DNA of 64,000 bases from Candidatus Sulfotelmatobacter sp. Its GTDB lineage: Bacteria; Acidobacteriota; Terriglobia; Terriglobales; Acidobacteriaceae. Below, piece by piece: positions 2,026 to 45,250 of the stretch. The notes beneath the pieces are model-generated. The model did no database searches, was not told the DNA's origin, and was given only the letters and a program-made list of their open reading frames with translations. The stretch is taken from positions 226,874-290,873 of the forward strand of contig DASYBM010000002.1 in the NCBI GenBank assembly GCA_036500765.1, given 5' to 3'. Each line of letters opens with the position of its first letter. The first letter of the stretch is position 1. The position numbers and the translations under genes were made by a program.

Positions 2026-3846
2026 CTACTTCTTGGCTTTAGGATCTTTCGTGAATTGCATGGTGCGTGTAATCCCCTCGCCTTCCTTTACGTAAATCAC
2101 CTGATTCACTTTGACGTCTTTGAGCACATCCACCCGCCCGCTCGGCCAGTGAACTTCGAGCGCATCAACCTTCTCAGCCTTCCCCAATCCGAAGTGAACC
2201 CGCAGATCATTCTGCGAGAAGTATCCGCCGCCACTGCGCACTTCGTCGATCTGCTGATGAGGTTTTGTTTCGCCGGCGACATGAGTCACGCATTTCAGAC
2301 GAGCGCCAATTCCGCTCCGATTCGATTTCGTTCCGATCGTGCGAATCTTGATCCAGTTGTGCTCGAGCTTTGTGTCGCAGCGCAGCAATTGCGGGTAGTC
2401 GTTTACGGTGTTGATAACGACATCGATGTCCCCATCATTGTCGAAATCGCCAAATGCCGCGCCCCGTGACGGACTCGGTTCAGAAATTCCCGGCCCGGCC
2501 TGCAAGGACACGTCTGCGAAATGGCCGTTGTGCAGATTCTGATAGAGCAACTTGCGCTGCGCGTAACCCGCCTCAGTTTTGAGTTGCTCGACTTCAGGAT
2601 ACACATGCCCGTTGCAGATCAGAATATCGGCCCAGCCATCGTTGTCCATATCAAAGAAACCGCATCCCCAGCCGAGATATTGCGTATGTGTGCCGAGTCC
2701 GGCGGTGAACGTTGCATCTTCGAAACTGGCGCCACCCACATTGTGATAAAGCGACGGCGTGTCGCCGGCGAAGTTGGTTTTGACCAGATCGAGATTCCCG
2801 TCAAGATCGTAGTCGGCGGCAGAAATACCCATACCGGCTTGCGGCTTGCCGTCGGGACTGAGTGCGCATCCGGCTTCAATGGCGATGTCCTGGAATTTCC
2901 CATTTTTCTTGTTTTGGTAAAGCGCACTCGCGGTCGAGTCGTTGGCCACATAAATATCGGGCCAACCGTCATTATCCAGGTCTGCCGTCAGCACGCCCAG
3001 GCCGTAGGTTCCATTCGCGTTCAGAATGCCTGCCGCTTCCGAGACATCGCTGAACGTTCCATCGCCGTTGTTGTGGTAAAGAATGTTCTTGCCGCCCTGG
3101 AGTCCGGGCGGTCCGCACGCCACCATCACGCTTTTATAGAGGCACGGACCCGACTCGGGCACGGGGGCCGTTGCCAAATCCAGGTCGATATAGTTCGCTA
3201 CGAACAGATCAAGCCGGCCATCGCGATCGTAATCGACGAAGGCGCAGCCCGTATTCCATCGCGTGCCTTTGCCCGCCACGCCGGCCTTCTGGCTGACATC
3301 GCTGAATGTGCCATCGCCATTGTTGTGATACAAAACGTTCTTTCCGAAGTAGGTGACAAATAGATCGTCCCAGCCATCATTGTCATAGTCGCCGATGCAA
3401 ACGCCTTGTCCCCAGCCAGAGTGCGCGACTCCGGCCTTCATGGTGACGTCGGTGAATGTCCCATCGCGATTGTTGCGAAACAAATGCGAAGTGGGTTCGG
3501 CACCAACCGGAAAACCCTCCAGCCGCGAGCCATTCACCAGAAAAATGTCGAGCCAGCCATCGTTATCGTAGTCGTAAAAAGCGACACCGCAGCCCGTGGT
3601 TTCCAGCAGGTATTTGTTTTTATGCTCACCGCCGAAAATCGTTTTGGCATTCAGTCCAGATTCGCGACCAACATTGACAAAGCTGATCCCGAGATCTTGC
3701 TCTTCTTTCATCGAAGCAGTCTTATCCTGCGCGGGCGCACCGGCGTGCAGCCAGCGCGGACGCGCCATCGCCAAGACGCTTTCCAGGGAAAGCACCAAGG
3801 CCGAACGGCTCAGAGATTTTAAAAAAATGCGACGTGAAGGGAACAA
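2026..3846 (-). CDS. CRTAC1-family secreted protein (FG-GAP/VCBS repeats plus ASPIC/UnbV), paralogue of 280-2025, Tat-like signal
   Basis: N-terminus MFPSRRIFLKSL...AMA is twin-arginine-like. It has the same DYDNDGW repeats and a TKSNRSGIGARLK...EVRSGGGYFSQNDLRVHFGLG...VHWPSG tail. By eye it is about 60% identical to the neighbouring gene. Confidence 0.8.
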   Translation of the reverse strand: MFPSRRIFLKSLSRSALVLSLESVLAMARPRWLHAGAPAQDKTASMKEEQDLGISFVNVGRESGLNAKTIFGGEHKNKYLLETTGCGVAFYDYDNDGWLDIFLVNGSRLEGFPVGAEPTSHLFRNNRDGTFTDVTMKAGVAHSGWGQGVCIGDYDNDGWDDLFVTYFGKNVLYHNNGDGTFSDVSQKAGVAGKGTRWNTGCAFVDYDRDGRLDLFVANYIDLDLATAPVPESGPCLYKSVMVACGPPGLQGGKNILYHNNGDGTFSDVSEAAGILNANGTYGLGVLTADLDNDGWPDIYVANDSTASALYQNKKNGKFQDIAIEAGCALSPDGKPQAGMGISAADYDLDGNLDLVKTNFAGDTPSLYHNVGGASFEDATFTAGLGTHTQYLGWGCGFFDMDNDGWADILICNGHVYPEVEQLKTEAGYAQRKLLYQNLHNGHFADVSLQAGPGISEPSPSRGAAFGDFDNDGDIDVVINTVNDYPQLLRCDTKLEHNWIKIRTIGTKSNRSGIGARLKCVTHVAGETKPHQQIDEVRSGGGYFSQNDLRVHFGLGKAEKVDALEVHWPSGRVDVLKDVKVNQVIYVKEGEGITRTMQFTKDPKAKK

Positions 3847-3965: not shown

Positions 3966-6593
3966 ATGGATTCTCACCCAAGAAACATTCCGCGTTCCGC
4001 CTTGTCCGGCAAACTTTCGTCCAACAAGAGTTTGTTCGCAGGAATTTCATTTTCGAGCATTTCAAAGATCTCCATTTTGTTGCGAACTTGGCTGATCCTT
4101 GCCACTCTTTCGGCCGCCCAGTCCCCAACGCAAGAACTCGTGCGCACGGTTCGCTCCTGGGAGTTTCTTCCAGTGCTTGGCACTCGCGCAGGATTATTCG
4201 GCAGTGAAACGGGACAATTCGAAGCCTGGGTCTATCCCCTAAAGATTTTCCGTGACTTTCATCTGACCTTCCACGTTGGCGATCGCGCACTTCCAGCGGA
4301 GAGCCTGGCTCGGACGCTCACGGTCCGCCCCGAGTCGGCCTCGATCCTCTACGCCGGCGATTCCTTCCGTGTGCGCGAAACTCTGTGCGTTCCGGTGCAC
4401 GAGTCTGGGGCCGTCATCCTCCTCGATATCGAGACCGAGCAGCCGCTGGAGGTGGAAGCCGCATTCACCGCGGACTTCCAACTGGAATGGCCCGCGGCGC
4501 TGGGCGGAACGTATGTGAATTGGAATGCGAAGCAGCAAGCTTTCGTGTTCGGTGAAGAAGCGAAGAAGTTCTTCGCCCTGGTTGGCTCACCCACGGGCGG
4601 GAATGCGAGACTCGCCTATGAAACGAATTATTCTTCATCCGACCAGGACTCGCTGCGGCTCGGCGTCACGCAAAAAGGAAAAGACACAAAAGTATTGGTG
4701 ATCGCGGCCTCCGTTGGCGGCCGAGCGGATGCCGAGAAAACCTACCAGCAACTGTTGACTTCCTATGCCGACTTGGTGCGCCAGTCCGCGGAGTACTATC
4801 GCGCCTATCTCGACAATACCGTGAGCCTCGAACTACCCGATGATGCGTTGCAACAGGCCTACGACTGGGCACGGATCAGCACGATTCAAGGGATGGTGGC
4901 GAATCCTTATCTTGGGACTGGGCTCGTCGCGGGCTACCGAACCTCAGGAGCCGGACAGCGACCCGGCTTCGCGTGGTTCTTTGGACGAGATTCCCTATGG
5001 ACGTCGTTCGCCCTGAACGCCGAAGGAGATTATTCCAGCACTCGAACCGCGCTGGAGTTCATCAGCAAGTATCAGCGCGAAGACGGAAAAGTGCCGCATG
5101 AGATCTCGCAGAGCGCAAACCTGGTGCCGTGGTTCAAGGACTATCCTTACGCGTATGTTTCCGCCGATGCGACTCCGTTGTTCATCATCGCAATGAATGA
5201 CTATGCGTCGCAGAGCGGTGACGTTGCATTCGCACGCGACAAGTGGGACAACGTCTGGCGCGCGTACCAGTTTTTGCGTTCCACTTACGATGGGCAAGGC
5301 TTCGCCCAGAACGCGGGCGTTGGCCACGGGTGGGTCGAAGGCGGGCCGCTGCTTCCCGTCAAGAATGAGTATTATCAGGCCGGACTTGCCGTCGAAGCAT
5401 TGCGGGCGCTATCCAATTTAGCGCGCCTCGTCGGGAAGGACGACATCAGCAATCGGCTCGCCGCAGAGTTCGAGCATAGCAAGCCCGCGCTCGATGAAGC
5501 ATTCTGGTCCCCCGAGAAGAAGAGCTACGCATTCGCTTTGAAGCCCGACGATCAGCGCTCCGATGAAACCAGCGTGCTGGCGATGGTTCCGATGTGGTTT
5601 GGATTGGCCGAAGCCGACCGGGCGGACCAGACGATCACGCAACTCGCCCGGGAGGATCACCAGACGGACTGGGGCATGCGCATCATCTCGAAGCGGTCAA
5701 GCGTCTATAACGGATCGGGTTACCATTACGGCTCGGTGTGGCCACTGTTTACGGGATGGGCTTCGGTGGCCGAATACCGCTACCATCGCGCCTTCCCGGC
5801 ATATTCCAACCTGCGGTCCAACGCTCTGCTCGGTGTTGACGGCGCGCTCGGCCACTTCACCGAAGTGCTGTCGGGAGATTACTACCAGTCATTTTCAACG
5901 AGTTCGCCGCATCAGATCTGGTCCGCCGCAATGGTGATCAGTCCAATCTTGCGGGGCATGTTTGGCCTGCAGACCGACGCCGAGAAGCATGAGATTATCC
6001 TTGCTCCGCATGTGCCGTCCGACTGGACATCGTTCGCCATCCGCCATGTGCACGTCGGGAAGATCGGCGCTGACTTTCAATATCGCAAGACGGCTGATCG
6101 GGTGACCCTCGAGATCAAACGCACTGGGACAGGCGATTGTTGGGTGGAATTTTCTCCAGCGTTCAGTCTGCGCACGCAAGTTGTGAGCGTTCAGTTGAAC
6201 GGACGCCCTTTGCCCTTCAAGATGCTGCCCAACAAAAATGATGAGCACTTATCCCTTCGTTTTCCCATAAAGGATGGCTCCAATGAAGTGGCGATTCGAG
6301 TAAGAAACGACTTCGGATTGGCCTACTCGAACGAACTCCCGCACTTGGGGAGTGCGAGTCGCGGACTTCGAGTCCTCGCCGAATCCTGGAATGCATCGAA
6401 GACTGAGTTAACCGTGGAAGTCTCGGGAGTCGTGGGAAGCCGCTACGAGTTCGATGTTTGGAATCCAGCTCAGATCTCTTCTGTTCAAGGGGCGACCCTC
6501 ACCAAGAGTGGGAAGCTGGAAATCCAGATGCCGCAAGGCGCGTCGGAAACCTACTTGCAGCAAAGAGTCGTAATTCGGTTTGGGCGGGCTTAA
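3966..6593 (+). CDS. Six-hairpin glycoside hydrolase, amylo-alpha-1,6-glucosidase (GDE_C)-like; start uncertain
   Basis: Motif GYRTSGAGQRPGFAWFFGRDSLWTSFAL is typical of the GDE_C / debranching-like catalytic domain. The track start at 3834 would overlap the divergent gene start at 3846. The first internal ATG is at 3966. A hydrophobic stretch LLRTWLILATLSAAQS suggests an even later start and secretion. Confidence 0.55.
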   Translation: MDSHPRNIPRSALSGKLSSNKSLFAGISFSSISKISILLRTWLILATLSAAQSPTQELVRTVRSWEFLPVLGTRAGLFGSETGQFEAWVYPLKIFRDFHLTFHVGDRALPAESLARTLTVRPESASILYAGDSFRVRETLCVPVHESGAVILLDIETEQPLEVEAAFTADFQLEWPAALGGTYVNWNAKQQAFVFGEEAKKFFALVGSPTGGNARLAYETNYSSSDQDSLRLGVTQKGKDTKVLVIAASVGGRADAEKTYQQLLTSYADLVRQSAEYYRAYLDNTVSLELPDDALQQAYDWARISTIQGMVANPYLGTGLVAGYRTSGAGQRPGFAWFFGRDSLWTSFALNAEGDYSSTRTALEFISKYQREDGKVPHEISQSANLVPWFKDYPYAYVSADATPLFIIAMNDYASQSGDVAFARDKWDNVWRAYQFLRSTYDGQGFAQNAGVGHGWVEGGPLLPVKNEYYQAGLAVEALRALSNLARLVGKDDISNRLAAEFEHSKPALDEAFWSPEKKSYAFALKPDDQRSDETSVLAMVPMWFGLAEADRADQTITQLAREDHQTDWGMRIISKRSSVYNGSGYHYGSVWPLFTGWASVAEYRYHRAFPAYSNLRSNALLGVDGALGHFTEVLSGDYYQSFSTSSPHQIWSAAMVISPILRGMFGLQTDAEKHEIILAPHVPSDWTSFAIRHVHVGKIGADFQYRKTADRVTLEIKRTGTGDCWVEFSPAFSLRTQVVSVQLNGRPLPFKMLPNKNDEHLSLRFPIKDGSNEVAIRVRNDFGLAYSNELPHLGSASRGLRVLAESWNASKTELTVEVSGVVGSRYEFDVWNPAQISSVQGATLTKSGKLEIQMPQGASETYLQQRVVIRFGRA

Positions 6594-12245: not shown

Positions 12246-13445
12246 ATGCCTTTTTCTGACGCAGCAACTGCTACAGCATCCTCAGCAAAATCCGCCAAAG
12301 CTCTTACGCTGGCGGCCTACGCTTCGTTCGTGCCGATCGGAATCGCGACCGTGCTATTGGGTCCGATGCTGCCAATATTGTCGACCCGATGGTCGCTGAA
12401 CTATTCGCAAGCGGGCCGGCTATTTCCTACACAGTACATAGCGTCGACCGTGGCAGTCGCTTTGTCTGGAGTGCTGGTTTCGCGTTGGGGATTTCGATTT
12501 GCCATCAAGGCCGGACTGGTGCTGGCGACTGCGGGAGTGGGCCTGCTGCTGGCCGGTCCGGAAACCCTCGGCATGGCATGTATTGCGGCATACGGAGGCG
12601 GCCTGGGGCTTGCGGTTCCGGCGGCCAATCTGTTGGTGGCGGAGGTCAATCCGGGACGGCGTAGCGCTACCTTGAATCTGCTGAATTTCTGCTGGAGTGC
12701 GGGCTCAGTGGCTTCGCCCTTTCTGGTCGCAGCCGCGGCCAAACGAGACGAGATTCCGCTCTTGCTGGCTTGCATTGCGGGATTTCTGCTGCTGGTTGCG
12801 CTGGGCATCGCGGCCATGCCCTCTTCCATCATCGAACCATCGGTCGCGCGAGAGGCCAAACCGAGCCGAGGGCTCGGGATCGATTGGAAGAATCCAGCGT
12901 TGCCGAACCTAGCGGCACTTTTTTTCATTTACGTCGGCACGGAAAATGGATTCGGATTGTGGGTAGCCACCTATGCGAAGAGCCTGGGCAGTTTGAGCAT
13001 AACCACGGCGTTGATGACGCCCTCGTTTTTCTACTCGGCGCTGCTGGCTGGACGTTTGCTGGCCCCGCTCCTGCTGCGGTTGACGAACGAGGTGCGCCTG
13101 GCGCAGGCGGGATTGCTGGTGGCATGCGCGGGGATGGGCGGGCTGCTGTTCTCGCACGCCCTGCCCGGGGTATTGTTGAGCGCCTGCCTGGCTGGATTCG
13201 GTCTCTCCATTGTCTACCCGATCGCGGTCGCGCTTTTGTCGCTGGAGTTTGGGGCGTCGGCAGCGCGTGTGGGATCGCTGCTGTTTACGCTTTCGAATTT
13301 GGGGGGCGGATTACTGCCGTGGATTGTCGGTGTTTCATCGACGCGATTCGGGACGCTCAGGGCGGGATTGATTATGCCCTTGATCGGAAGCGGGCTGATG
13401 TATGTGCTCTATCTGCGGAAATGGAAGACGGAGCCGGGTGTCTAG
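12246..13445 (+). CDS. MFS transporter
   Basis: 399 aa with about 12 predicted TM segments and Gly/Ala/Leu-rich helices. Substrate cannot be read from the sequence. Confidence 0.7.
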   Translation: MPFSDAATATASSAKSAKALTLAAYASFVPIGIATVLLGPMLPILSTRWSLNYSQAGRLFPTQYIASTVAVALSGVLVSRWGFRFAIKAGLVLATAGVGLLLAGPETLGMACIAAYGGGLGLAVPAANLLVAEVNPGRRSATLNLLNFCWSAGSVASPFLVAAAAKRDEIPLLLACIAGFLLLVALGIAAMPSSIIEPSVAREAKPSRGLGIDWKNPALPNLAALFFIYVGTENGFGLWVATYAKSLGSLSITTALMTPSFFYSALLAGRLLAPLLLRLTNEVRLAQAGLLVACAGMGGLLFSHALPGVLLSACLAGFGLSIVYPIAVALLSLEFGASAARVGSLLFTLSNLGGGLLPWIVGVSSTRFGTLRAGLIMPLIGSGLMYVLYLRKWKTEPGV

Positions 13446-13557
13446 CCGACCATACCAAGCAAGTGGCGTCCCTGCGGGACTCCTTCTTTTTGTTCGCTCC
13501 TTTCCGGGCACTCCCGTGCCGGCTTTGGCATGCCGCCTCGCGGCTGTAGTTGATCGG

Positions 13558-14712
13558 CTAGGTGCGTACGAATCTGGCGGCGAGACGACTGAGTCGCACC
13601 AGGCGATATATCGGGAAAAGCGGTGGAGGTAAATGGACTGCCTGCCAGTCGCTGGGGCCAGAAGTAAAAGCCAGACGCTTCAGGAATCGTAGGCGATCGG
13701 CGGGGCGTTCGCGGAGACGCATCATCAACCGGAAGTACGCCACCGATTCCACGTTGTAGGAGGACTGGGTGGCAAGATGAGTTTGAATCTCGTCTGCCAG
13801 AGCCGGCGTTACCGGATCTTCGGGAAGACAGGTTTGCGCGGCAGAAGGCATGACCGCATTCAAAAGCCGATTCGCGAGCACCATCGTGACCCGAACGATA
13901 CGGACAATGCCCAAGGCTTGCGCCTGAGAGCCGATCCAATTCCAATCCAACGTTGGGAGCGCCATGATGCGGGCAATATCACAAAGCCAGATCAAACGTC
14001 CCCACACATGTTTGGCTGCGTGCGCCGATAGTAATAGGACCAAGTCTTCCGGCGCAGGAGTTGGCATCGGACGACCAGCAACCGGCACAGTAATAGCGCG
14101 CTGGAACAAGCAGTTCATTTCAAAATCGATGGCATAAAACCGCGGCTGCATCGCCCATTGCACCTCAAGAAGATTGGGACCGGCGGGGCCGTCGAAGGCG
14201 CATTCGTATCCTGACTTCAGGTAGGCACGCTCCTCAGCTGGAGAAAAATCCAGGTGCGGCATGTAACCGAGATCGCGGACCGCGTCCCGGATGTGAGGGA
14301 AGTCCTGGGGATGGATGAGCAGATCGATATCGCCGGACTGACGAAGCGCGATGTCGCCGTAGATTGTTTCAGCCAGCGCCAGCCCCTTGTAAGGCATCGC
14401 CTGAAGACCGAGCCCAGACAAGTGGTCAAGGATTCGAATCAACTCACAGGACAGCAATAACGTCTTGTGGAGATTGGTTTGGAACCGCTGCTTCAGCGAA
14501 GACAGTTCCTTGCGACGAACGTCTTCTACTTCGACAACAGCTTGATGAAGAAGTGGAAGAGTACCGTGGCGTTCGGCGAGATCGAAAAGAACTTCCCAGC
14601 GGATGGACTCGCGTGACAAAGACCGAATGTGGAAAATCTGTTCCTTGCGTGAAACTTCAGAACACGCCGCTAGGAGAAGGGACCACTCGGCTTCGAGTGT
14701 AGCGGAAGGCAT
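13558..14712 (-). CDS. Nucleotidyltransferase-fold protein (uncharacterised NTase family, PF14907-like)
   Basis: NTase-fold motif ...YGDIALRQSGDIDLLIHPQDF..., 384 aa. It is the last gene of the rSAM/PqqD/kinase operon, 30 nt downstream of the rSAM gene. Confidence 0.6.
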   Translation of the reverse strand: MPSATLEAEWSLLLAACSEVSRKEQIFHIRSLSRESIRWEVLFDLAERHGTLPLLHQAVVEVEDVRRKELSSLKQRFQTNLHKTLLLSCELIRILDHLSGLGLQAMPYKGLALAETIYGDIALRQSGDIDLLIHPQDFPHIRDAVRDLGYMPHLDFSPAEERAYLKSGYECAFDGPAGPNLLEVQWAMQPRFYAIDFEMNCLFQRAITVPVAGRPMPTPAPEDLVLLLSAHAAKHVWGRLIWLCDIARIMALPTLDWNWIGSQAQALGIVRIVRVTMVLANRLLNAVMPSAAQTCLPEDPVTPALADEIQTHLATQSSYNVESVAYFRLMMRLRERPADRLRFLKRLAFTSGPSDWQAVHLPPPLFPIYRLVRLSRLAARFVRT

Positions 14713-14742
14713 GTGTTCGTTCGGACCGCGAAACGGTCCGGA

Positions 14743-15903
14743 TCACCCGATCGTGCCGTGCGCCGAAGTGACAACGGCTGACGCAAGGGGACGAATCTGC
14801 ACCAGAGTCGCGTGTCCCATCGCCTTATCCATCCAATCCAGATTCACGCCAGCCGCTTGCTTGGCTAGCATATTGGCCGAGGGAATCCCGGTCCGAGCGT
14901 AGGACTTCTGACAATCCTGCGACGAAGGCCCCCGCATGTTGCCTTCCATGTAGGCGAGACCGGGGCAGCGTGTGCAGGTTGTGGCGTGACTACATGAGGA
15001 GCACGTCGGCAAATGCTTGGTGCGGATCGAGCGCACTTCATTCATTTGGTCGGAATAGCGCCAAATGTCGACGAAGCGCTGCTGGCGTACGTTCCCAGTC
15101 GGCAGCGGAAACTGCACGCACGGGAATACGTCGCCGTACGGTGAAACGTAACACGCCGTGTGGCCGGCACTGCACGGCACGGATTCGAGGTCGCTTTCGC
15201 CCGGCGGCGGGGGGATCGCGCAATATTCGTCAGTGTCGCCCACCAGGGCTGTATCGCGGAAAACCTGCCGCAACGCGGTCGTGTCAACGCCAAGATCGAG
15301 AGTGGAGCGGTTGCCGTCCATCATGGGCGTGACAGTGGGATCGAGAGTACATTCGACGCCAAGTTCAGCGGCGAGCGCGCGCACGCCGGAATAATCCTGC
15401 ATGTTCTGCGTCATCAGAACGTTGGCGATGATGACTTTTAATCCCTGCGATTTCAGAAAGCGGATGGCAGCAAGGGAACGCTTGAGCGAGCCAGGAATCA
15501 GCGTGATGGCGTCGTGAACTTCGGGGCGGTGCGAGTAAATGCTGACCTGAATCGATTCGACATGAAGATCGCGGAGGCGGGCGGCCTCATGCTCGCGGAT
15601 GAGGACAGCGTTGGTCTTGAGCTTCACGCAGAACATGAGACGGCGGGCGTGTTCGAGAAGCTCGAAGAAATCCTTGCGCAGAAAAATCTCGCCGCCGCTG
15701 AGCGTGAGAATGAACACCCCGGCGTCGGCCATTTGATCGAACAAGTGCTTGATTTCCGTTGTGGTCATCTCACCGTGATCGTCATGATCGAGATAACAGT
15801 GAACACAGCGCTCATTGCAGCGATAAGTGAGATCGACCTGGACGCTGAGGGGAATGTTGAGTTTCAGCGCTTTCTCGGACATTTCCTGTAGAAGCGCGCT
15901 CAT
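14743..15903 (-). CDS. Radical SAM enzyme with C-terminal SPASM-type auxiliary cluster domain (peptide-modifying type)
   Basis: CX3CX2C motif CNERCVHCY at residues 29-37. C-terminal Cys array CSAGHTACYVSPYGDVFPC...CSSCSHATTCTRCPG matches the SPASM pattern. The ATGA start/stop overlap with the PqqD-like gene indicates translational coupling. Confidence 0.9.
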   Translation of the reverse strand: MSALLQEMSEKALKLNIPLSVQVDLTYRCNERCVHCYLDHDDHGEMTTTEIKHLFDQMADAGVFILTLSGGEIFLRKDFFELLEHARRLMFCVKLKTNAVLIREHEAARLRDLHVESIQVSIYSHRPEVHDAITLIPGSLKRSLAAIRFLKSQGLKVIIANVLMTQNMQDYSGVRALAAELGVECTLDPTVTPMMDGNRSTLDLGVDTTALRQVFRDTALVGDTDEYCAIPPPPGESDLESVPCSAGHTACYVSPYGDVFPCVQFPLPTGNVRQQRFVDIWRYSDQMNEVRSIRTKHLPTCSSCSHATTCTRCPGLAYMEGNMRGPSSQDCQKSYARTGIPSANMLAKQAAGVNLDWMDKAMGHATLVQIRPLASAVVTSAHGTIG

Positions 15904-16232
15904 CGGGATTCTCCAAGGGCCGAGTTTGGCGTCCTGATCGGTCTGTCTACAATTGGGTGATCTGAGATTTGCAATATCTCATGCGTGGCTAGTTCCCGCG
16001 CCAGGGTTTCGGCGTCGTGCAATGCCTCAGAGGGCTCCACTTCGAACTCAGAGCAGATGCGGTGCTCAACGATTTCGTCGAGCGGAGTGCTGCCGTCGGC
16101 GGATTGCCACAGAATGGTCGCGGTCTTGTTCAGAGTAAAGAGCGTGGAATCACGGCCCGACATGATCATCATTTCGCCGTCGAGACTGCGGGCTGCGACT
16201 CGCGGATTGCGGGCAAGGTAAAGTCGGCTCAT
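15900..16232 (-). CDS. PqqD-family protein (RiPP recognition element / peptide chaperone)
   Basis: 110 aa. The pattern ...ARSLDGEMMIMSGRDSTLFTLNKTATILWQSADGSTPLDEIVEHRICSEFEVEPSEALHDAETLARELATHEIL is the typical PqqD winged-helix layout. It overlaps both neighbours by 4 nt. Confidence 0.75.
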   Translation of the reverse strand: MSRLYLARNPRVAARSLDGEMMIMSGRDSTLFTLNKTATILWQSADGSTPLDEIVEHRICSEFEVEPSEALHDAETLARELATHEILQISDHPIVDRPIRTPNSALGESR

Positions 16233-17098
16233 CCGATCAACTCCCAGACCCGGGCATCGGGTACAAAAGTGAGGCGCGACACCGGGACCCGGCTCACGAA
16301 CTCGAAGGCGGAATGAAATGTGGCTTGCACCAGTTCCTCATCCTGCGCGAAAAACAGAAGATTAGCAAGTAGCGATCGAGTCGCTTCCCCGGGCGCCAGG
16401 GGATCGATGCGATTCACCGGGCCTTTGGCGAGCAAGTAGAGGGCGGCGATCGGAGCCGAAACATTTTCGCCGAGCTTGGCTAGTTCGCCGGTAAACGGCG
16501 TACCGTACGCCATGTAGCCGCCATCGTGCTTGCGCACGCCTTCCCTGCGCAGATCTTCCTTTCGGGCGCTTTCTTTTCGAACGTAGGAAATTTCGTCGGT
16601 CAACAATGTTGCGTCGGGCGGGGCCAGCCGGGAGATCGTGGTTTTACCGGCCTCCGAAACGCCGGCGAATAAGAAAGCCCTGCCATTGCGTATGGCGCTG
16701 GCGGAGTGCAGAAGGAATCCGCCCTGACGGGCAAGCACGAGCGTGTGGACAATGCGCAGCACGGCGTCGATCGAATAAGGATTGGCCGACTGGCGAATCC
16801 ACCCACGACGCGAAGCGGGCTCCCACTCGGCGCGAAAATCTCCTCGCTCCATGGTCCAGCGGCCCTCATGTTGAGTAACGCTTACTACGGCATAAGGATC
16901 GGCGAAGGTGGCGGGTCTGAGGTCAACATCGAATTCAATTTCCACGGGTCTGTCCGCCCGCTCCGAGACCACGAATCCGGCATAGCGGTCTTGCAGCATC
17001 GCCAGAAAGCCCGCATCTGTGGCCAGGACGCGGACGGGCATGCCTCCGATTTCAATCACGAGGCTGAGGCGGTCGACTTCAGTGGTTAGCTCGGGCAA
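16229..17098 (-). CDS. HPr-kinase-C-terminal-like P-loop protein (HprK-related kinase)
   Basis: Walker-A-like FAGVSEAGKTT in a 289-aa protein with no other recognisable domain. The call also rests on gene context next to PqqD and the NTase. Confidence 0.55.
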   Translation of the reverse strand: MPELTTEVDRLSLVIEIGGMPVRVLATDAGFLAMLQDRYAGFVVSERADRPVEIEFDVDLRPATFADPYAVVSVTQHEGRWTMERGDFRAEWEPASRRGWIRQSANPYSIDAVLRIVHTLVLARQGGFLLHSASAIRNGRAFLFAGVSEAGKTTISRLAPPDATLLTDEISYVRKESARKEDLRREGVRKHDGGYMAYGTPFTGELAKLGENVSAPIAALYLLAKGPVNRIDPLAPGEATRSLLANLLFFAQDEELVQATFHSAFEFVSRVPVSRLTFVPDARVWELIG

Positions 17099-17601
17099 AC
17101 GACGTCTCGATCCTGATTGCGGCTCGGAGTCTGGCGCATGCCATGAATGCCTGCGACTACACGGGCAGCGAACTTAGAACGCTGAATCATGGCCGCTACT
17201 GCGTGCTCGAAGAAGCTCTGATTCTGGCGCGGGCGAATGAATTTGCCGTTACGCTCGATCAGGGAAACTCTCCCCATGACTTCGCCTTCCGGCACTGGCG
17301 GATCCGCGGCAGCCATCGCATCCCCGCGGGTCACGATTTCGAAAGCTGGTCGGTGGCCTGGGGCGACCGTGCGACGCACAACTCTATGTACTACGAGTCG
17401 CCGGTCGCGGCCGTACAAGACGATGTCGCCTTCTGAAATGCAACCGGTGGAGATGCGCTCGATCGTGAGCATGTCTCCAGGCATGATGGCTGGCAGCATG
17501 CTCCATCCTGTAACACACAGACGCAAAGTACCGGACGAGCGCAAGACTTCACTCGCCAGTTCGCACTTCAACGCGTGCACGGCATTGGCGGCGGGACTCA
17601 C
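17086..17601 (-). CDS. S24/S26-family serine peptidase (signal-peptidase-I/LexA-like fold), candidate leader peptidase; start reassigned
   Basis: Motif RLCVTGWSMLPAIMPGDML (nucleophile-Ser region), then GDIVLY and RGDAM. The track start at 17664 would overlap the 56-aa small ORF. An in-frame GTG at 17601 lies 8 nt after that ORF's stop and leaves about 33 aa before the catalytic Ser region. Confidence 0.6.
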   Translation of the reverse strand: MSPAANAVHALKCELASEVLRSSGTLRLCVTGWSMLPAIMPGDMLTIERISTGCISEGDIVLYGRDRRLVVHRVVRRTVAPGHRPAFEIVTRGDAMAAADPPVPEGEVMGRVSLIERNGKFIRPRQNQSFFEHAVAAMIQRSKFAARVVAGIHGMRQTPSRNQDRDVVCPS

Positions 17602-17609
17602 ACGTGGTT

Positions 17610-17780
17610 CTAGGAAACCTTGGAACTCGTACAGCCCCCTTGGGTCGCGCTTATCTTGCCGCACGAAAGCGCGCTGGTTACAAACACCTGTTCGAAGCGA
17701 AAAGCGGGCTTTTCGTACGGTTTCTTGTTGGTCTCCGAGGTGCGCGGAGCGTCATCGGAAGAAAAGTTGTTCATCGCCAT
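17610..17780 (-). CDS. Candidate RiPP precursor peptide (56 aa), not in the ORF track
   Basis: Hand translation of the minus strand gives MAMNNFSSDDAPRTSETNKKPYEKPAFRFEQVFVTSALSCGKISATQGGCTSSKVS*. ATG at 17780-17778, with AAGG 8-11 nt upstream; TAG at 17612-17610. It sits immediately upstream of the peptidase/kinase/PqqD/rSAM genes on the same strand. The N-terminal half is hydrophilic and leader-like, with a YEKPAF motif. The C-terminal half is rich in Cys, Ser, Thr and Gly. Confidence 0.5.
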   Translation of the reverse strand: MAMNNFSSDDAPRTSETNKKPYEKPAFRFEQVFVTSALSCGKISATQGGCTSSKVS

Positions 17781-17804
17781 AAAGGACCTTGCCTACAGCA
17801 GAAT

Positions 17805-19958
17805 TCACTGAGGCTCCTGCATCGCGCAGGCGCCCGTGCCGGATGTTCCACAAACCTGACTGCCCAGAGTAAAAAAGTATACCTGAGAAGCGCCCGTTAA
17901 AGTGCCGCTGTTCACAGCGTTGTCGATAATAATCCCGCCCGTGCCGGAGGCTGCGGGAATGGCCGCGTTGGGCCAAGGGCCGGCATTGGTCCAAATCGCC
18001 GTGCCATCTGTAGTCGTGCCGCCAACGTTTGTGTTCCATGTGGGAACAGCGCCGCCAGACCTCCCGCTCAAAGGCAATACCTCAACGTTGTTGTTGCTGT
18101 CAATAATACGGGAGACGTTGCCGTAGATATGGTTGGCGGTCCATCCCGTCAATGTGTTAACCGTTGTCGCTCCCTGGTTCACCCAAGTGACGCCGCCGTC
18201 CACCGTCTGGTTACTGGGATTGGTAGGCCACACGGGTTCGGATGTGCTCGTTGTACCGGCCGTAATAGCCGTATTGAGGTACAACGTGTTGTTCGCGGTT
18301 CGGAGAACTAATATCTGCTGACCCACGTTAAAGTGAGTGGAAGCGCGCCACGGCATGCTGATGAAATTCATCATGCAGCCCCTGTTGGCGCACGGCGTCG
18401 GCCGGGCGCTGTTGGCAACGCTAAAGAAAATCCGTTCGGTCGTGCCTACGCTGGTATTCGGGTTCGAAAAGTCTGTTACGGGAGAACAGGCGGGCTTTTG
18501 CGCGGCGGGAGTCAGTGGCGCTATCGCAGCGGCTGCGCCGAAAACGCCGCTGTTAATCGGCACCCGGTACAAATTAGGGTCTCCTCCCGTGTTGCCGCAA
18601 ACGTAGAGGTTTCCCGTGGCCCCCGCAGATCCATAATAGGTACTGTCAAAGCCGCCAATGTATAGCGGGTTCGGAGTATTGCCGCTCGCGACGCTGGTCC
18701 CGACGAGCACATTGGATCCCTTGGAACCGGACGCGAATGTCGTGGAAAGTTGGAAGACAGCGCTACAGGCGACGCCGCCGCAGCTCGTGCTGCCATCGCT
18801 CGAAGAGAACACATAGATCAAGCTGTTGGTGACATCGAGGATTGGACTCTCCACCAGACCGGTGCCGAAATCCAATTTTCCGGACGCGGTGGCCGTGGTG
18901 CCGGTCGCCGAAGGCACTCGATAAAAGAACCCGCCCGCATCGCCCACAAATACGTTCCTGGATATGTGGTCATAGACGGGATTGGAAAGTGCGCTGGGAT
19001 TGGTCGTATTAACCTGAACTGGGAAACCGCCCGCGCTGACTTCGCCCGGAGGGTTTAGGGCGGTGCCCTTGAATACTCCGGTAATTTTATGAAGCCAGCC
19101 GATAGCGCCACCAGTCCAGGCTATGTCATTCGTGTAATCGTAATATGCCGATGAAGTTCTGTCGTCGACAGCGACCCCGTGCCCGTCGTGCAGGAAAACC
19201 TCGGTCATGCAAGGGGCGACACAAGTCGGATAGAGCGCATTGGATACGGATGTCGGTACACCCGGCGCGCCAACGGTTTCGGTAGCTGATGCCTTCCATT
19301 TCAGAATCACCAGTCCGGCTAGGCCCGTAGGGCTGCCCGAAGTCTGTACGAACGCGACCTGTGTGCCATCCAGAGACAGCACTGGAGAGGTGAGAATGAG
19401 ACCGCCAGTGTTGTAGGCCCAATAGACCGAAGGCACAGTGCCTCCGCATCCGGAGTAGAGATTGTCGAATGCGACCACGCTGGCTTGCGTTCCAGATCCA
19501 ATTACCCCAGTAGTGTAGACGACATAATCCGGGGTGGCGGCGGCGCCGCAGTTCGCGATACTGGTGTTAAACGAAAATTTGGCGGGATAGTTAGTCGCAC
19601 CCGGCGCGGCCGCACCGCCGAGCGTCTGCGGCCAGACGTTGCTGGGAGTATTCCCCGGGTTCAAATCGGCCGCTTCCGGCTTCAGCACCTGAGACTGTCC
19701 GCGGCGATACAGCTGTTGCCAATAACGCGGATCGTCGTTGAGCAGGCGAGCTTGTTCCTCCGATGCGGGCGCAGTGAAGATAACGTGACTGTGACTCCAG
19801 TCGGTAGGCAGAGGGATTCCGCGGCCAGCGGGCTTAGCCGCCTGGCCGGTTAACACCCATCCCAAGACCGCCAATCCAGACAAGCTCACACCCAGCCGGA
19901 GAAATCGTGCGGAGGTACCGTTCATTTGTGCAGACTCCATGGGTCTCGCGAGATGCAA
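17805..19958 (-). CDS. Large secreted hypothetical protein (Gly/Ser/Thr/Asn-rich, possibly beta-propeller-like) with two C-terminal W...DG..W repeat modules
   Basis: N-terminal signal/anchor FLRLGVSLSGLAVLGWVLTGQAA. 717 aa. Two tandem C-terminal modules: TAGTTSTSEPVWPTNPSNQTVDGGVTWVNQG and SGRSGGAVPTWNTNVGGTTTDGTAIWTNAG. Its stop is 24 nt upstream of the small ORF start. Confidence 0.6.
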   Translation of the reverse strand: MHLARPMESAQMNGTSARFLRLGVSLSGLAVLGWVLTGQAAKPAGRGIPLPTDWSHSHVIFTAPASEEQARLLNDDPRYWQQLYRRGQSQVLKPEAADLNPGNTPSNVWPQTLGGAAAPGATNYPAKFSFNTSIANCGAAATPDYVVYTTGVIGSGTQASVVAFDNLYSGCGGTVPSVYWAYNTGGLILTSPVLSLDGTQVAFVQTSGSPTGLAGLVILKWKASATETVGAPGVPTSVSNALYPTCVAPCMTEVFLHDGHGVAVDDRTSSAYYDYTNDIAWTGGAIGWLHKITGVFKGTALNPPGEVSAGGFPVQVNTTNPSALSNPVYDHISRNVFVGDAGGFFYRVPSATGTTATASGKLDFGTGLVESPILDVTNSLIYVFSSSDGSTSCGGVACSAVFQLSTTFASGSKGSNVLVGTSVASGNTPNPLYIGGFDSTYYGSAGATGNLYVCGNTGGDPNLYRVPINSGVFGAAAAIAPLTPAAQKPACSPVTDFSNPNTSVGTTERIFFSVANSARPTPCANRGCMMNFISMPWRASTHFNVGQQILVLRTANNTLYLNTAITAGTTSTSEPVWPTNPSNQTVDGGVTWVNQGATTVNTLTGWTANHIYGNVSRIIDSNNNVEVLPLSGRSGGAVPTWNTNVGGTTTDGTAIWTNAGPWPNAAIPAASGTGGIIIDNAVNSGTLTGASQVYFFTLGSQVCGTSGTGACAMQEPQ

Positions 19959-20054
19959 AAGGCTTGCGGGCCGTGCTCAAAAATGCGCCGTCTTGCAAAT
20001 AGTTTCTAACGTTGTGCCTGTTCGTGCAGAGCCGCAGTTGGGCGATCGACCGAA

Positions 20055-23024
20055 ATGTGCAATCTCTCGATCGCGTTCCAATCTCGCAGACTCGAAACTC
20101 CAACGCAAAGTGGACTCACGTCTTCCATCGGGAGGCTGGATTGGCGAGGATTCTACCCTGTATGCAGGGCGCAACGCAAACCTGTTTTCCCGCCCCAGTG
20201 CGCGATATCATTCACAGACCTTACAATAGAAAACGTAGAACTTATTCCCCGAGAATGTCATCGAAGTAGTTCGCCTGATGCCGGGCCTAAAACCCTAGAA
20301 AACGGACTGGAGAAACAAATTTTGGACGGATACGAGAATGCGACGGAAAAGCTAGCAGAAGGTACGGAGCAAACCGTGGATTCGAGCAAGGTCACGAATG
20401 CGCTGACGCGGGGTGACATTGCGAATCTTACGGCGGACGGCAGCCAGCCCGCAGAAACGCTGATGAACGTGGTGGCCCTGATCGCCAAGAGGTTCCGAAC
20501 CGACGTGTGCTCGGCATATTTGCTGGAGCCGGATCGCGCCAACCTCGTGCTGGCGGCAACCGTGGGCCTGCGTCGGGAGTGCATCGGCGTTCTCCGGATG
20601 GCTGTGAATGAAGGGCTCACCGGCCTGGTCGCGGAACTCGTACGGCCGGTGGCGGTCGAGCAGGTAAAGAATCATCCCCGGTTCAAATACTTTCGAGATG
20701 CAGGCGAGGATGCCTACCAGTCGTTTCTTGGCGTTCCGTTGGTTGAACGGGGAGTTCTACAGGGAGTACTGGTGGTGCAAACCGTCGAAGCGCGCGTTTT
20801 CAGCGACGACGAAATTCGGATGCTCACGGAAGCGGCCACCCAGGTCGCACCCGTGGTCAGTGAAGCGCGCACACTCGACCGCTTCATTGCCCCGCTGCAA
20901 GAGAGGCTGTGGGCGCTGGCCCGCAATCTGTGGTGGAGCTGGGACCACAATTCCTCGAGCCTGTTCCTGGATCTGGATCCCGCACGCTGGAACGAACTCA
21001 ACCACAATCCGGTGGCACTGTTGGCGGAACTTCCGCTGGCCAAGCTCGAAGCGCGTGCGGCGGAAATCATGCTGCACAGTCGCGTGAATTACGCGTACCG
21101 GCGAATGCTCGAGTATCTGGAAGCGGATCTGACCTGGGGCGCGAAGAACGCCGGCGTCCTGCGTCCGCATCCTGTCGCTTATTTTTCCGCCGAGTTCGGC
21201 TTGCATGAATCGCTGCCGGTATATTCCGGCGGGCTCGGTGTTTTGGCAGGAGATCACATCAAAAGTGCGTCTGACCTGGATATTCCTCTGGTCGGGATCG
21301 GTTTGTTTTATGGCCAGGGATATTTTCGGCAACGGCTCGATCTCAACGGATGGCAGCGCGAAGAATATCTCAAGACCGATGTCAATCAGATGGCGATGGA
21401 GGTGGCGATCGGCAAGGATGGCCTGCCGGTCATGGTGGAGATCGAGACGCGTAGCGGGCGCATTCACGCAAAGGTTTGGCGGGTGAAGGTGGGACGGCGC
21501 GACCTGTTGCTGCTTGACTCCGACGTGGAAGGCAATGCTCCCGAGGACCGCGAATTGACCTCGCGGTTGTACGGGGGAGATCTGCGCATTCGCATCCGGC
21601 AGGAGTTGCTGCTGGGCGTGGGCGGATTGCGCGCTCTCAAGGCGCTGGGGATTTCTCCCGGCGTTCTTCACTTGAACGAAGGCCATAGTGCTTTTGCCGT
21701 GCTGGAAGCGGTTCGGCAGCGGATGGAAGATGAAGGTATCGGGTTTGACGCCGCGGTGCCGCGCGTCTCACGTGAGGTTGTGTTCACCACGCATACTCCG
21801 GTACCGGCGGGACATGACCGGTTCGATGCCGGCCTGGTCGAAGAGCACATCGGACCGCTTCGCGAGGCGCTTGGGCTTTCGCCGGAAACCCTGCTGGGGC
21901 TGGGCCGCGAGAATTCCAGCAACGGCGACGAATTATTTTGTATGACCGTGCTGGCGTTGCGGCTTTCGCGCCGTGCCAATGCCGTTTCGGCGCTCCATGC
22001 GGAAGTCTCGCGCGCGATGTGGACGAAGCTGTTTCGCAACAAACTGGAAGACGATGTTCCGATTGGACACATCACCAACGGCGTGCACGTTCCATCCTGG
22101 CTGGCTCCGGAGATGTTTCGACTCTACGATCGCCACCTGGGAAGGGACTGGAACCAGCGCAGCAGTGAAGCGAAAATCTGGCTAGGGATTGAGGATGTGG
22201 ACGATGGCGAACTGTGGGAGACGCACCTTAACCTGAAATCGCAGCTCATCGAATTTGTGCGGCGGCGAGCGGTGGAGCAGGCGCAGCGTCGCGGTGAACC
22301 CCAGGAAACCCTCCAGCGTCTGGAGCGTGTCTTGAGTCCGGATGCGCTCACCATCGGATTCGCGCGGCGTTTTGCCACATACAAGCGGGCTAATCTGATT
22401 CTGGCCAATATCGAGCGGCTGGCTTCCATGGTGAACGATCCCAATCGGCCGGTGCAGTTTGTGTTTTCGGGCAAGGCTCATCCCCTCGATGAGCCCGGCA
22501 AGCGGTTGTTGCAGCAAATCGCCGAATTGATGCGCGATCCTAAATTCCGGGACAAGTTTGTATTCGTTGAGGACTATGACATCAACGTAGGACGCCACTT
22601 TGTGCAGGGCGTCGATGTCTGGCTCAACAATCCGCGCCGTCCGCTGGAGGCCTCCGGCACGAGTGGACAGAAAGTGGTTCTGAACGGTGGCCTGAATCTT
22701 TCCATCCTGGATGGCTGGTGGGCTGAGGCATTCGATGGCATGAATGGATTTGCCATCGGAACGGGAAGAACGCATTCCAATATGGCAGTTCACGATGCCC
22801 GCGATGGAGAAGACCTGATGCGGACGCTTCGTGAAGAAGTGATTCCGCTTTATTACCAGCGCGATCGCGATGGACTTCCGCGGGGCTGGATCAAACGCAT
22901 GAAACGCACGATCCGTACTCTGGGCTGGAGATTCAATGCCGACCGCATGGTGATGGATTACACGCAGAAGTGCTACGTGCCGGCGGCCGGAGGAACATCG
23001 AGCGATATGAGATCAAACTCGTAG
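20055..23024 (+). CDS. glgP: Alpha-glucan phosphorylase (GT35, maltodextrin/glycogen phosphorylase, DUF3417-type) with N-terminal GAF domain
   Basis: GAF-like block: LMNVVALIAKRFRTDVCSAYLLEPDRANLVLAATVGL...EGLTGLV...FLGVPLVERGVLQGVLVVQT. Then WWSWDHNSSSLFLDLDPARWNELNHNP (DUF3417). Catalytic core: GGLGVLAGDHIKSASDL and the PLP-Lys region EASGTSGQKVVLNGGLNLSILDGWW. The start is uncertain; an in-frame TTG at 20322 with an upstream GGAG is an alternative. Confidence 0.85.
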   Translation: MCNLSIAFQSRRLETPTQSGLTSSIGRLDWRGFYPVCRAQRKPVFPPQCAISFTDLTIENVELIPRECHRSSSPDAGPKTLENGLEKQILDGYENATEKLAEGTEQTVDSSKVTNALTRGDIANLTADGSQPAETLMNVVALIAKRFRTDVCSAYLLEPDRANLVLAATVGLRRECIGVLRMAVNEGLTGLVAELVRPVAVEQVKNHPRFKYFRDAGEDAYQSFLGVPLVERGVLQGVLVVQTVEARVFSDDEIRMLTEAATQVAPVVSEARTLDRFIAPLQERLWALARNLWWSWDHNSSSLFLDLDPARWNELNHNPVALLAELPLAKLEARAAEIMLHSRVNYAYRRMLEYLEADLTWGAKNAGVLRPHPVAYFSAEFGLHESLPVYSGGLGVLAGDHIKSASDLDIPLVGIGLFYGQGYFRQRLDLNGWQREEYLKTDVNQMAMEVAIGKDGLPVMVEIETRSGRIHAKVWRVKVGRRDLLLLDSDVEGNAPEDRELTSRLYGGDLRIRIRQELLLGVGGLRALKALGISPGVLHLNEGHSAFAVLEAVRQRMEDEGIGFDAAVPRVSREVVFTTHTPVPAGHDRFDAGLVEEHIGPLREALGLSPETLLGLGRENSSNGDELFCMTVLALRLSRRANAVSALHAEVSRAMWTKLFRNKLEDDVPIGHITNGVHVPSWLAPEMFRLYDRHLGRDWNQRSSEAKIWLGIEDVDDGELWETHLNLKSQLIEFVRRRAVEQAQRRGEPQETLQRLERVLSPDALTIGFARRFATYKRANLILANIERLASMVNDPNRPVQFVFSGKAHPLDEPGKRLLQQIAELMRDPKFRDKFVFVEDYDINVGRHFVQGVDVWLNNPRRPLEASGTSGQKVVLNGGLNLSILDGWWAEAFDGMNGFAIGTGRTHSNMAVHDARDGEDLMRTLREEVIPLYYQRDRDGLPRGWIKRMKRTIRTLGWRFNADRMVMDYTQKCYVPAAGGTSSDMRSNS

Positions 23025-28179: not shown

Positions 28180-28430
28180 GAAGCGCCGCTGCGCGCTTAT
28201 GAGAGTACTGCGGCCTTATTGGATTTTCGGCGATTTCGGACGACGGAAGGCCGTCCCCGTTTTTCCTCAACCAGCCTGCCCTTGTCACTGGGGCATTGAT
28301 CCAACCTATTGAAACGATTCGTCATCGAAGCTGAGTCCGATCGAGCAAGCCATGGCTTTCAGTAGATTCGATGGTCATCCGGGAACGGAACCCATGGGGT
28401 GGCCGTCCCTTCGGCAGATATAGGTGCGTA

Positions 28431-30251: not shown

Positions 30252-30259
30252 GTGCTTTT

Positions 30260-45047: not shown

Positions 45048-45250
45048 TGTCGTTTTTCCAGAACCCCGTTCCCCCGCGGGCACTCGCCTTGGTGCGCCAA
45101 TCGTTGGCGGCGGATTCCCCGGGGGAAATGTACGGTTAGAATATCGCCGCTGGAGTTAGTCTTCGAGTTACCAAGGTAAGCAAGGAAAGACGGGAGTGAA
45201 TGTCCTGTGGGGGAGCAGCGGGTGAACGGAAGATGGAGTGGAGGCGGGTC

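Follow-up and report, generated by a model that had tools for sequence, protein, structure and literature searches.

What does a bacterium produce from an operon in which a radical S-adenosylmethionine enzyme with a SPASM domain (rSAM) lies beside a PqqD-type protein, a kinase-like protein, a nucleotidyltransferase-fold protein (NTase) and a peptidase? The question is raised by positions 13558-17780 of a 64,000-nucleotide stretch of contig DASYBM010000002.1 from a Candidatus Sulfotelmatobacter genome (Acidobacteriota; GCA_036500765.1), referred to at its full length as the window, where both the open reading frame (ORF) listing and the sequence place six co-directional ORFs on the minus strand. 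We conclude, with a probability of roughly 0.7, that this operon encodes the pathway of a peptide made by the ribosome and modified after translation (RiPP) from a widespread undescribed family, in which the machinery of linear polyphosphorylated peptides (LPPs) and phosphorylated lasso peptides is combined with an rSAM/SPASM maturase, and for which we propose steps of crosslinking, phosphorylation and cleavage. Judged by its sequences the system would be an rSAM-containing variant of the LPP/phosphorylated-lasso toolkit, related to SynChlorMet and not a member of it. An original prediction, made from the letters of the window alone, had treated the gene set as a hybrid that it could not assign to a named RiPP class; the set is now placeable through the LPP gene core (PMC13381572) and the kinase-PqqD-rSAM/SPASM logic of SynChlorMet.

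We scanned one genome per GTDB species for relatives of the rSAM and obtained at least 592 stretches, the best 80 of which were analysed as close loci. These 80 come almost entirely from Terriglobia metagenome-assembled genomes (MAGs) and most of them, as judged by tblastn, share one gene order: a gene for a protein of 706-717 amino acids (the 717-aa gene), the precursor, the S24-type peptidase, the kinase-like protein, PqqD, rSAM and NTase, followed by a convergent transporter gene of the major facilitator superfamily (MFS). The original prediction had suggested such a comparison of neighbourhoods, and both the gene order and the small upstream ORF proved to be kept in most of the 80 loci. 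One clade (L070-L080) carries only precursor, peptidase, kinase, PqqD and rSAM, in another genomic context, and lacks the NTase and MFS genes and mostly also the 717-aa gene. A few near-identical loci with rSAM identities of 74-83 % (L009, L037, L057, L060 and L062) belong to MAGs labelled Binatia, Verrucomicrobiia or Dormibacterota; because these loci resemble Terriglobia loci so closely, the labels look like binning errors.

More distant relatives were sought in metagenome contigs using as queries eight kinase relatives that are 33-38 % identical to the window kinase. This returned 80 loci with kinases 29-58 % identical to that of the window, on contigs with a GC content of 0.31-0.69. Where the contig left room downstream, an rSAM gene was present in 43 of 44 loci and a PqqD gene in 41 of 44, and in those with room for everything we found a precursor in 19 of 25, an S24 peptidase in 19 of 25 and an NTP_transf_5 gene in 7 of 25; the last three counts are lower bounds because the window proteins served as detection queries. 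The commonest distant order, kinase-PqqD-rSAM-precursor-peptidase, is a permutation of that in the window. On one contig of 31 % GC (L095) Pfam recognises NTP_transf_5, PqqD, Radical_SAM with SPASM, and Peptidase_S24 around a 42-residue precursor. Linkage that persists across rearranged and distant loci therefore identifies a core of five genes, namely the precursor, a peptidase resembling type I signal peptidases (SpI-like), an ScmC-type kinase, a RiPP recognition element (RRE) and the rSAM/SPASM enzyme, with the NTase, present in most close loci, as an accessory member. The domain identities, the linkage across distant lineages and the conservation of the precursor are direct observations.

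The 56-residue ORF is a real precursor gene. Homologs occur in 65 of the 80 close loci and again in the distant ones, conservation of the small ORF being a point on which the original prediction had been made to depend, and together with the copy in the window the close homologs form a set of 66 precursors to which the following counts refer. Nucleotide diversity at codon positions 1, 2 and 3 of the small ORF is 0.11, 0.06 and 0.52, and 20628 codon differences are synonymous compared with 5976 that are non-synonymous. All 66 precursors contain exactly two Cys and end in Ser, while 63 of the 66 cores are unique. Their consensus is KKPYEKPxFRxExVFVT[T/S]AL[S/T]CGK-x8-10-C-x6-8-S. The alignment is free of gaps from Y22 to K42, a block that runs into the core and has a mean identity of 87 %, as against 36 % in the 15-residue variable tail. 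The spacing of the two Cys is 8-10 residues and a tail of 6-8 follows the second; C40, C50 and S56 are invariant within the core and K42 is nearly so. V, A or L precedes the last residue in 59 of the 66, and the window precursor ends in K-V-S. Neither Pfam nor NCBIfam holds a model that matches these peptides, and the window contains a single copy of the gene with no second precursor.

The precursors of the distant loci are homologous to that of the window. They share without exception the Y, P, E and L and the first of the two Cys, and Y22, P25 and E30 are invariant throughout the family; conservation of K24, of K42 and of the second Cys reaches at least 90 % across the family. With few exceptions the last residue is Ser, which a low-GC subgroup replaces by Thr. 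Distant subfamilies have [F/Y]-E-T immediately before a conserved A-L-x-C-x-K, and F33-V34-T35 occupies the same place in the window. We predict cleavage after T35, giving a core of 21 residues, because the [F/Y]-E-T tripeptide is what directs cleavage by LppS, the peptidase of the LPP system; the unmodified core SALSCGKISATQGGCTSSKVS has a monoisotopic mass of 1970.94 Da, or of 1883.91 Da should the cut fall one residue later. Some distant loci carry multiple precursor genes, including three in tandem in L093 (2988-3653) and two each in L106 (7845-7931 and 11323-11442) and L123, where one of the two is aberrant, lacking the C-x-K motif and ending in Cys.

The discrete PqqD protein matches Pfam PqqD (E 4e-11), its best NCBIfam models are those of lasso PqqD chaperones (NF033530 and NF033536), and its profile of hidden Markov model (HMM) matches is the same as that of LppB, the RRE of the LPP system, and of the RREs linked to the peptidases of cluster 3 discussed below. 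The rSAM matches Radical_SAM (E 3e-21) and SPASM (E 4e-11). Across 43 diverse homologs (28-69 % identity) C29, C33 and C36 of the CX3CX2C motif are 100 % conserved and the SPASM residues C244, C262, C301, C304, C310, C313 and C331 are 95-100 % conserved, the SPASM motif reading CSAGHTAC...CSSCSHATTCTRC. The highest HMM scores, to AhbD and NirJ2, cover the N-terminal half only and fall far below the cut-offs, which rules out the heme synthase named by some automatic annotations. Full-length matches are instead to peptide maturases, with MftC the best (132 bits vs a cut-off of 265) and StsB, AlbA and SkfB among them, WgkB also scoring high; assignment to a non-peptide family, named in the original prediction as an outcome that would overturn it, is thus not what we find. 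The closest solved structure is SkfB (E 1e-16), and SuiB and PqqE are also among the matches in the PDB. The enzyme has no fused RRE, which fits its separate PqqD gene.

The peptidase matches Pfam Peptidase_S24 (E 2e-6), and its best NCBIfam model is sigpep_I_arch, TIGR02228 (E 2e-11), to which it scores 44 bits against 37 bits for an LppS-type peptidase. In BLASTP comparisons it is nearest to the peptidases of cluster 3 of a published sequence similarity network (SSN; 34-38 % identity, E 1e-16 to 1e-20), an RRE-linked and uncharacterised group with members from Acidobacteriota, Myxococcota and candidate phyla (PMC13381572). Similarity to the LppS-type cluster 1 is lower (25-35 %, E 8e-7 to 3e-13) and the housekeeping SipW is barely matched (E 0.008-0.7). 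Ser34 (GWSM), His72 (VHRV) and Asp94 (RGDA) align with the catalytic S29, H68 and D93 of LppS. One public gene call starts at 17499, giving 137 residues that begin after the catalytic Ser of GWSMLP; this start is probably wrong because that residue would be lost. Homologs and the LppS alignment require a start upstream of ALKCEL, for example at the GTG at 17601, the exact position being uncertain.

The kinase-like protein is identical (100 %) to VGM18_02210, whose precomputed Pfam assignment is to the recent family PF27840, ScmC. It had been described in the original prediction as HPr-kinase-C-like: membership of the HprK/PEPCK superfamily stands, whereas Hpr_kinase_C itself gives no match in Pfam. 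The NCBIfam matches of the window protein, to ScmC (E 2e-5), HprK_rel_A (0.013), PEPCK (0.014) and HprK_rel_B (0.034), are all sub-threshold and lie in the P-loop region. In a search of 1.84 billion representatives 5574 clusters matched with E ≤ 1e-3, and E ≤ 1e-30 was reached by 153. When 32 diverse members (31-66 % identical to that of the window) were compared with the same models, ScmC was matched by 32 of 32, HprK_rel_A and HprK_rel_B by 26 of 32 each and PEPCK by 14 of 32. H131, G146, G151, K152 and D168 are invariant. A shallow profile returned nothing relevant from the PDB, and a family profile matched PEPCK structures (E 0.0013) over the stretch H-x-x-S…G-x-S-x-x-GKTT. Because of this family-level HMM and profile evidence we conclude that the protein is a P-loop protein of the HprK/PEPCK superfamily.

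The NTase is a clear NTP_transf_5 match (E 8e-52). In the 31 %-GC locus mentioned above (L095, 2061-5381) the module's NTP_transf_5 gene adjoins two genes for NAD-dependent nucleotide-sugar epimerases/dehydratases, neighbours that would fit a role of the NTase in sugar transfer. Some LPP clusters are likewise situated in polysaccharide loci (PMC13381572).

The characterised system most similar to this operon is that of the LPPs, described by Popov et al. (Nat Commun, May 2026; PMC13381572) for lppA-K-B-S-D-N of Paenibacillus alginolyticus. Its conserved genes encode the archaeal-type SpI-like peptidase LppS, the discrete RRE LppB, the HprK-like kinase LppK, the NTP_transf_5 protein LppN and an MsbA-type pump, and the precursor motif is YxxPxVLxHQxIxFETxxS. 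LppK polyphosphorylates Ser3 of the core and this phosphorylation precedes and promotes cleavage by LppS, which requires LppB and cuts after T-1, with F-3, E-2 and T-1 important for the cut; the family was described as restricted to Bacillota and its final product and role were left unknown in that report (PMC13381572). The window shares with it a soluble archaeal-type SpI-like peptidase that scores best with TIGR02228 in either system and retains the Ser/His/Asp triad, a discrete PqqD RRE with the same HMM profile, and an NTP_transf_5 protein of the same Pfam family as LppN. Both also have an HprK-like kinase that Pfam Hpr_kinase_C misses, the window protein being assigned at the level of the superfamily. 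In the precursors of both a YxxP motif marks the leader, F-x-T precedes the core and the C-terminal part is hypervariable. There are also differences. No rSAM is mentioned for LPPs and their product is linear, whereas an rSAM is integral to the window family; an MsbA-type exporter is found neither in the window operon nor next to it and is not conserved in the family; the phospho-acceptor is core Ser3 in LPPs, whereas the invariant residue here is the C-terminal Ser; the spacing from YxxP to F/Y-x-T is two residues shorter; the window peptidase is closer to the SSN cluster 3 than to LppS; and the family, unlike the LPPs, which were reported from Bacillota only, is found in Acidobacteriota as well as on contigs with a GC content of 31-69 %.

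Phosphorylated lasso peptides of the paeninodin, pseudomycoidin and Bsf type share with the operon a YxxP leader, a discrete PqqD-type B1 protein (the lasso PqqD models being the best NCBIfam matches of the window RRE), an HPr-kinase homolog and a nucleotidyltransferase-fold partner. The kinase targets the C-terminal Ser in paeninodin and pseudomycoidin, and in the latter the nucleotidyltransferase adds hexoses to the phosphate on that Ser (PMC8498205). The systems differ in that leader removal in the window is predicted to be carried out by a serine SpI-like peptidase, and any ring would be formed by the rSAM and not as a macrolactam. We reject a lasso cluster because the ORFs scanned include no cyclase and no B2 protease. 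Neither of these nor YcaO, LanB/LanM or ATP-grasp enzymes were found among the annotated genes within about 10 kb or among 20 further window ORFs of at least 200 residues, a scan that left a 1494-residue ORF at 30260-34744 outside its range; their absence, noted in the original prediction, therefore holds for the ORFs scanned.

The closest bioinformatic precedent is the SynChlorMet cassette, which is defined by models (ScmD, TIGR04248; ScmC, TIGR04249; ScmE, TIGR04250; ScmF, TIGR04251; and PF27840). An HprK-related ScmC-type P-loop protein beside a PqqD homolog and an rSAM/SPASM enzyme is common to both systems. All of the equivalog cut-offs are nevertheless missed (ScmC 24.1 vs 125 bits, ScmD 15 vs 100, ScmE 101 vs 400 and ScmF 59 vs 400), and the ScmC match of the window kinase covers the P-loop region only, the best family member reaching E 2.6e-12. 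SynChlorMet has two rSAMs compared with one in the operon, and the window family adds to these an identified precursor, an SpI-like peptidase and, frequently, an NTP_transf_5 protein; we know of no precursor for SynChlorMet.

The rSAM itself shares with SkfB, AlbA and StsB, and with the MftB/MftC and PqqD/PqqE pairs, the CX3CX2C motif, a seven-Cys SPASM domain, dependence on a PqqD-type RRE and a Cys-containing core. It differs from sactipeptide, ranthipeptide and other RRE-dependent rSAM/SPASM systems in that its RRE is a separate protein and in that no curated cut-off is reached. We know of no kinase, NTP_transf_5 protein or SpI-type leader peptidase in any of those systems. Mycofactocin differs further, as the MftC score lies well below its cut-off and the window precursor ends in K-V-S and not Val-Tyr; the operon neighbourhood holds no MftD/E/F-like or PqqB/C-like genes. 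In the literature we found neither a description of an rSAM added to an LPP-type gene set nor a catalogued family with this exact architecture, in agreement with the original prediction.

How the operon would act on its precursor can be outlined from these parallels, although the individual reactions, their sequence and export are all inferences on our part. The PqqD RRE would bind the leader through Y22-x-x-P25 and present the precursor to the other enzymes. The rSAM/SPASM enzyme would then introduce one or two intramolecular crosslinks into the core, most likely thioethers involving Cys40 and Cys50, with the nearly invariant Lys42 as a possible partner. The ScmC/HprK-like kinase would phosphorylate the side chain of Ser56, possibly several times; a hypervariable core that is followed by an invariant C-terminal Ser fits phosphorylation of the paeninodin/pseudomycoidin type. 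Where present, the NTP_transf_5 protein may attach a further moiety, for example a sugar, to the phosphate. Finally the soluble SpI-like peptidase, using its Ser/His/Asp triad and helped by the RRE, would cut after F33-V34-T35 to release a product of about 21 residues. The conserved features of the precursor suggest, as had been predicted from the window alone, a leader-cleaved, Cys-crosslinked and possibly phosphorylated or otherwise decorated peptide.

Certain observations weigh against this reading and are set out here with the alternatives that they favour. Two Cys also occur in some precursors of LPP clusters that lack an rSAM (PMC13381572), and the Cys pair could therefore be a plain disulfide. 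We consider it unlikely that the same pathway uses another radical chemistry, with the Cys forming such a disulfide or serving as ligands of the enzyme's auxiliary cluster, and the rSAM forming a C-C or C-N crosslink at Lys42, epimerising a residue or acting like MftC on the C-terminal X-Val/Ala-Ser. Such chemistry would suit the standing of MftC, which acts on a C-terminal Val-Tyr, as the best full-length HMM match, the high score of WgkB, the appearance of SuiB and PqqE among the PDB matches, the family-wide conservation of K42 and the frequent V, A or L before the last residue, but the nearest structure is that of the thioether-forming SkfB and sactipeptide maturases align over their full length. 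A streptide-type link would also lack its partner, since no aromatic residue is conserved in the cores of the 66 close or the distant precursors, and two Cys at constrained spacing in all 66 is the pattern of thioether RiPPs. The kinase assignment is open to doubt on other grounds. A deeper profile retrieved from the PDB only P-loop and PEPCK entries and no HprK structure, and an AlphaFold2 (AF2) model built from an 18-sequence alignment (≥ 78 % identical) had a mean predicted local distance difference test score (pLDDT) of 48.5 (below 50 in the kinase domain) and was set aside; the kinase activity is therefore read from motifs and sub-threshold HMM matches. BsfK, like LppK, phosphorylates core Ser3 and not the C-terminus, and as the equivalent position is conserved in neither close nor distant precursors the phospho-acceptor is uncertain. 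It nevertheless seems improbable to us that the ScmC-type protein leaves no stable phosphate and acts as an ATP-dependent partner of the rSAM, by transient activation or as a scaffold, on a product that stays unphosphorylated. The near-obligate trio of kinase, RRE and rSAM (43 of 44 loci), set beside NTP_transf_5 in only 7 of 25 distant loci, would be explained in this way, as would the confinement of the HprK-type model match to the P-loop region and a family name taken from SynChlorMet, a system without known phosphorylation. Yet the terminal Ser of all 66 close precursors, and the Ser or Thr of nearly all distant ones, is the acceptor of paeninodin-type kinases, NTP_transf_5 proteins accompany such kinases in paeninodin-type lasso clusters, in LPP clusters and in the window, and in LPP biosynthesis phosphorylation precedes and promotes cleavage by a peptidase of the same kind.

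The remaining difficulties concern how the genes behave in genomes. The rSAM is 72-86 % identical and syntenic across the 80 genome loci, which is unusual for a secondary-metabolite gene, and no dedicated exporter is conserved across loci. In 12 of the 80 close loci the peptidase, kinase, PqqD, rSAM and NTase genes are intact and within 7 kb both precursor and 717-aa gene are missing, loose six-frame patterns also detecting no precursor; another locus (L015, 5253-5369) retains a decayed precursor with an in-frame stop and the second Cys lost. For LPP clusters, cases are documented in which the precursor lies elsewhere in the genome (PMC13381572). Enzyme genes without a nearby precursor, the conserved enzyme and chromosomal neighbourhood, the lack of a conserved exporter and the MftC match would all be in keeping with a small peptide-derived cofactor or housekeeping metabolite, similar to PQQ or mycofactocin, into which only the invariant residues of the precursor pass. 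We regard such a product as very improbable: the MftC and PqqE equivalog cut-offs are missed widely, their companion genes (MftD/E/F-like, PqqB/C-like) are not found nearby, a core of constrained length and Cys spacing with variable sequence suits a structured peptide and not a discarded scaffold, and the leader, peptidase, kinase and NTase parallel those of LPP and lasso systems, whose products are peptides.

The arrangement of the locus is summarized in the table below. The packing described in the original prediction was recovered as stated, with ATGA overlaps of 4 nt at 15900-15903 and 16229-16232, an overlap of 13 nt at 17086-17098 and a gap of 30 nt at 14713-14742 between the NTase and rSAM ORFs; the stop codon of the precursor occupies 17612-17610 and an in-frame GTG (17601-17599) sits 8 nt downstream. 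The motifs that it had listed (CNERCVHC, the CSAGHTAC array, GVSEAGKTT, GDIDLLI and GWSMLP) are all present and its rSAM/SPASM, PqqD, NTP_transf_5 and S24 domain calls were verified by Pfam. Scans for promoters and terminators across 13300-20300 gave results no better than shuffled sequences.

Table 1 Positions in the window of the operon, its motifs and the adjoining genes
Feature	Position	Strand	Length	Remarks
MFS transporter	12246-13445	+		Convergent; Pfam MFS_1 E 2e-20
NTP_transf_5 (PF14907) protein	13558-14712	-	384 aa	GDIDLLI at 14314-14334, residues 127-133
Radical SAM/SPASM peptide maturase	14743-15903	-	386 aa	CNERCVHC at residues 29-36
PqqD-type RRE	15900-16232	-	110 aa	Discrete
ScmC-family P-loop kinase-like protein	16229-17098	-	289 aa	TTG start
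Walker A of the kinase-like protein	16637-16663	-		GVSEAGKTT, residues 146-154; followed by LLTDE at 16592-16606
SpI-like leader peptidase	17086-17601	-	171 aa from GTG	Archaeal/ER-type, S24/S26 clan; ORF up to 17664, 192 aa maximum
Precursor (small ORF)	17610-17780	-	56 aa	MAMNNFSSDDAPRTSETNKKPYEKPAFRFEQVFVTSALSCGKISATQGGCTSSKVS
Predicted leader	17676-17780	-		Precursor residues 1-35
Putative RRE-binding motif	17706-17717	-		YEKP, in the leader
Predicted cleavage motif	17676-17684	-		F33-V34-T35
Predicted core	17613-17675	-		Residues 36-56, SALSCGKISATQGGCTSSKVS
Seventh co-directional gene	17805-19958	-	706-717 aa protein	24 nt upstream of the precursor ORF

The seventh co-directional gene encodes a protein with an N-terminal hydrophobic segment and no Pfam match in the window copy, a few homologs matching PF13570. 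Its AF2 model is all-beta and propeller-like (mean pLDDT 61), and Foldseek finds generic propellers only (TM 0.2-0.3). Most close loci contain the gene, the 12 loci described above have lost it along with the precursor, and it does not occur in the distant loci; its membership in the system is uncertain. In one distant locus (L146, 10467-12773) a PQQ_2/BamB-type propeller protein is encoded between precursor and peptidase; neither BLASTP nor hhalign shows it to be homologous to the 717-aa protein, any link being at the level of the fold only. The MFS gene is syntenic in close relatives and absent from the L070-L080 clade and the distant loci, which makes the transporter a candidate exporter by position only.

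Upstream of the operon the segment 20055-23024 (+) encodes an alpha-glucan phosphorylase that carries N-terminal GAF domains as well as DUF3417, and the module adjoins a glucan-phosphorylase gene also in the precursor-less loci (L013, L016, L018, L020, L025, L029, L031, L032, L033, L043, L051 and L062). The intergenic region upstream of the phosphorylase gene (19960-20300) contains a stretch conserved between loci, seen as similar translated fragments on the opposite strand, 'LLYGxxAKLRT' (L013-L043, around 5000-5300), and kept even where precursor and 717-aa gene are missing; it may be a regulatory element of the phosphorylase gene. Elsewhere the window contains two paralogs of about 606 residues with FG-GAP/ASPIC (UnbV) repeats, convergent tail to tail with abutting ends (202-2025, + and 2026-3846, -), a 626-residue protein containing an ABC ATPase followed by the 1494-residue ORF (28371-34744, +), and a Ser/Thr protein kinase fused to PEGA domains (42432-45083, -).

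The finding extends the LPP logic of leader, RRE, kinase, NTase and SpI peptidase to Acidobacteriota and to contigs of diverse GC content and joins it with an rSAM maturase, and the toolkit would therefore be older, as well as more modular, than the published account has it. The operon also supplies a candidate substrate for a relative of the orphan ScmC/SynChlorMet-type proteins, namely a precursor family outside Pfam and NCBIfam that offers four fixed points (Cys40, Lys42, Cys50 and Ser56) and a predictable cleavage site for testing. It is possible, although we put this forward tentatively and at less than even odds, that these systems constitute a new RiPP class of peptides of about 20 residues, rSAM-crosslinked, phosphorylated on the C-terminal Ser, sometimes further decorated and freed of their leader by a signal-peptidase-like enzyme, which would be a stable chromosomal trait of dominant soil Acidobacteria found also in unrelated lineages. 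Stable inheritance and the lack of a dedicated exporter hint at a physiological role, in signalling or the cell envelope, and not at an antibiotic; if so, the adjacent beta-propeller protein may take part in that role. Hundreds of species-level genomes of bacteria that abound in soil carry the operon, and its product may therefore be of ecological importance.

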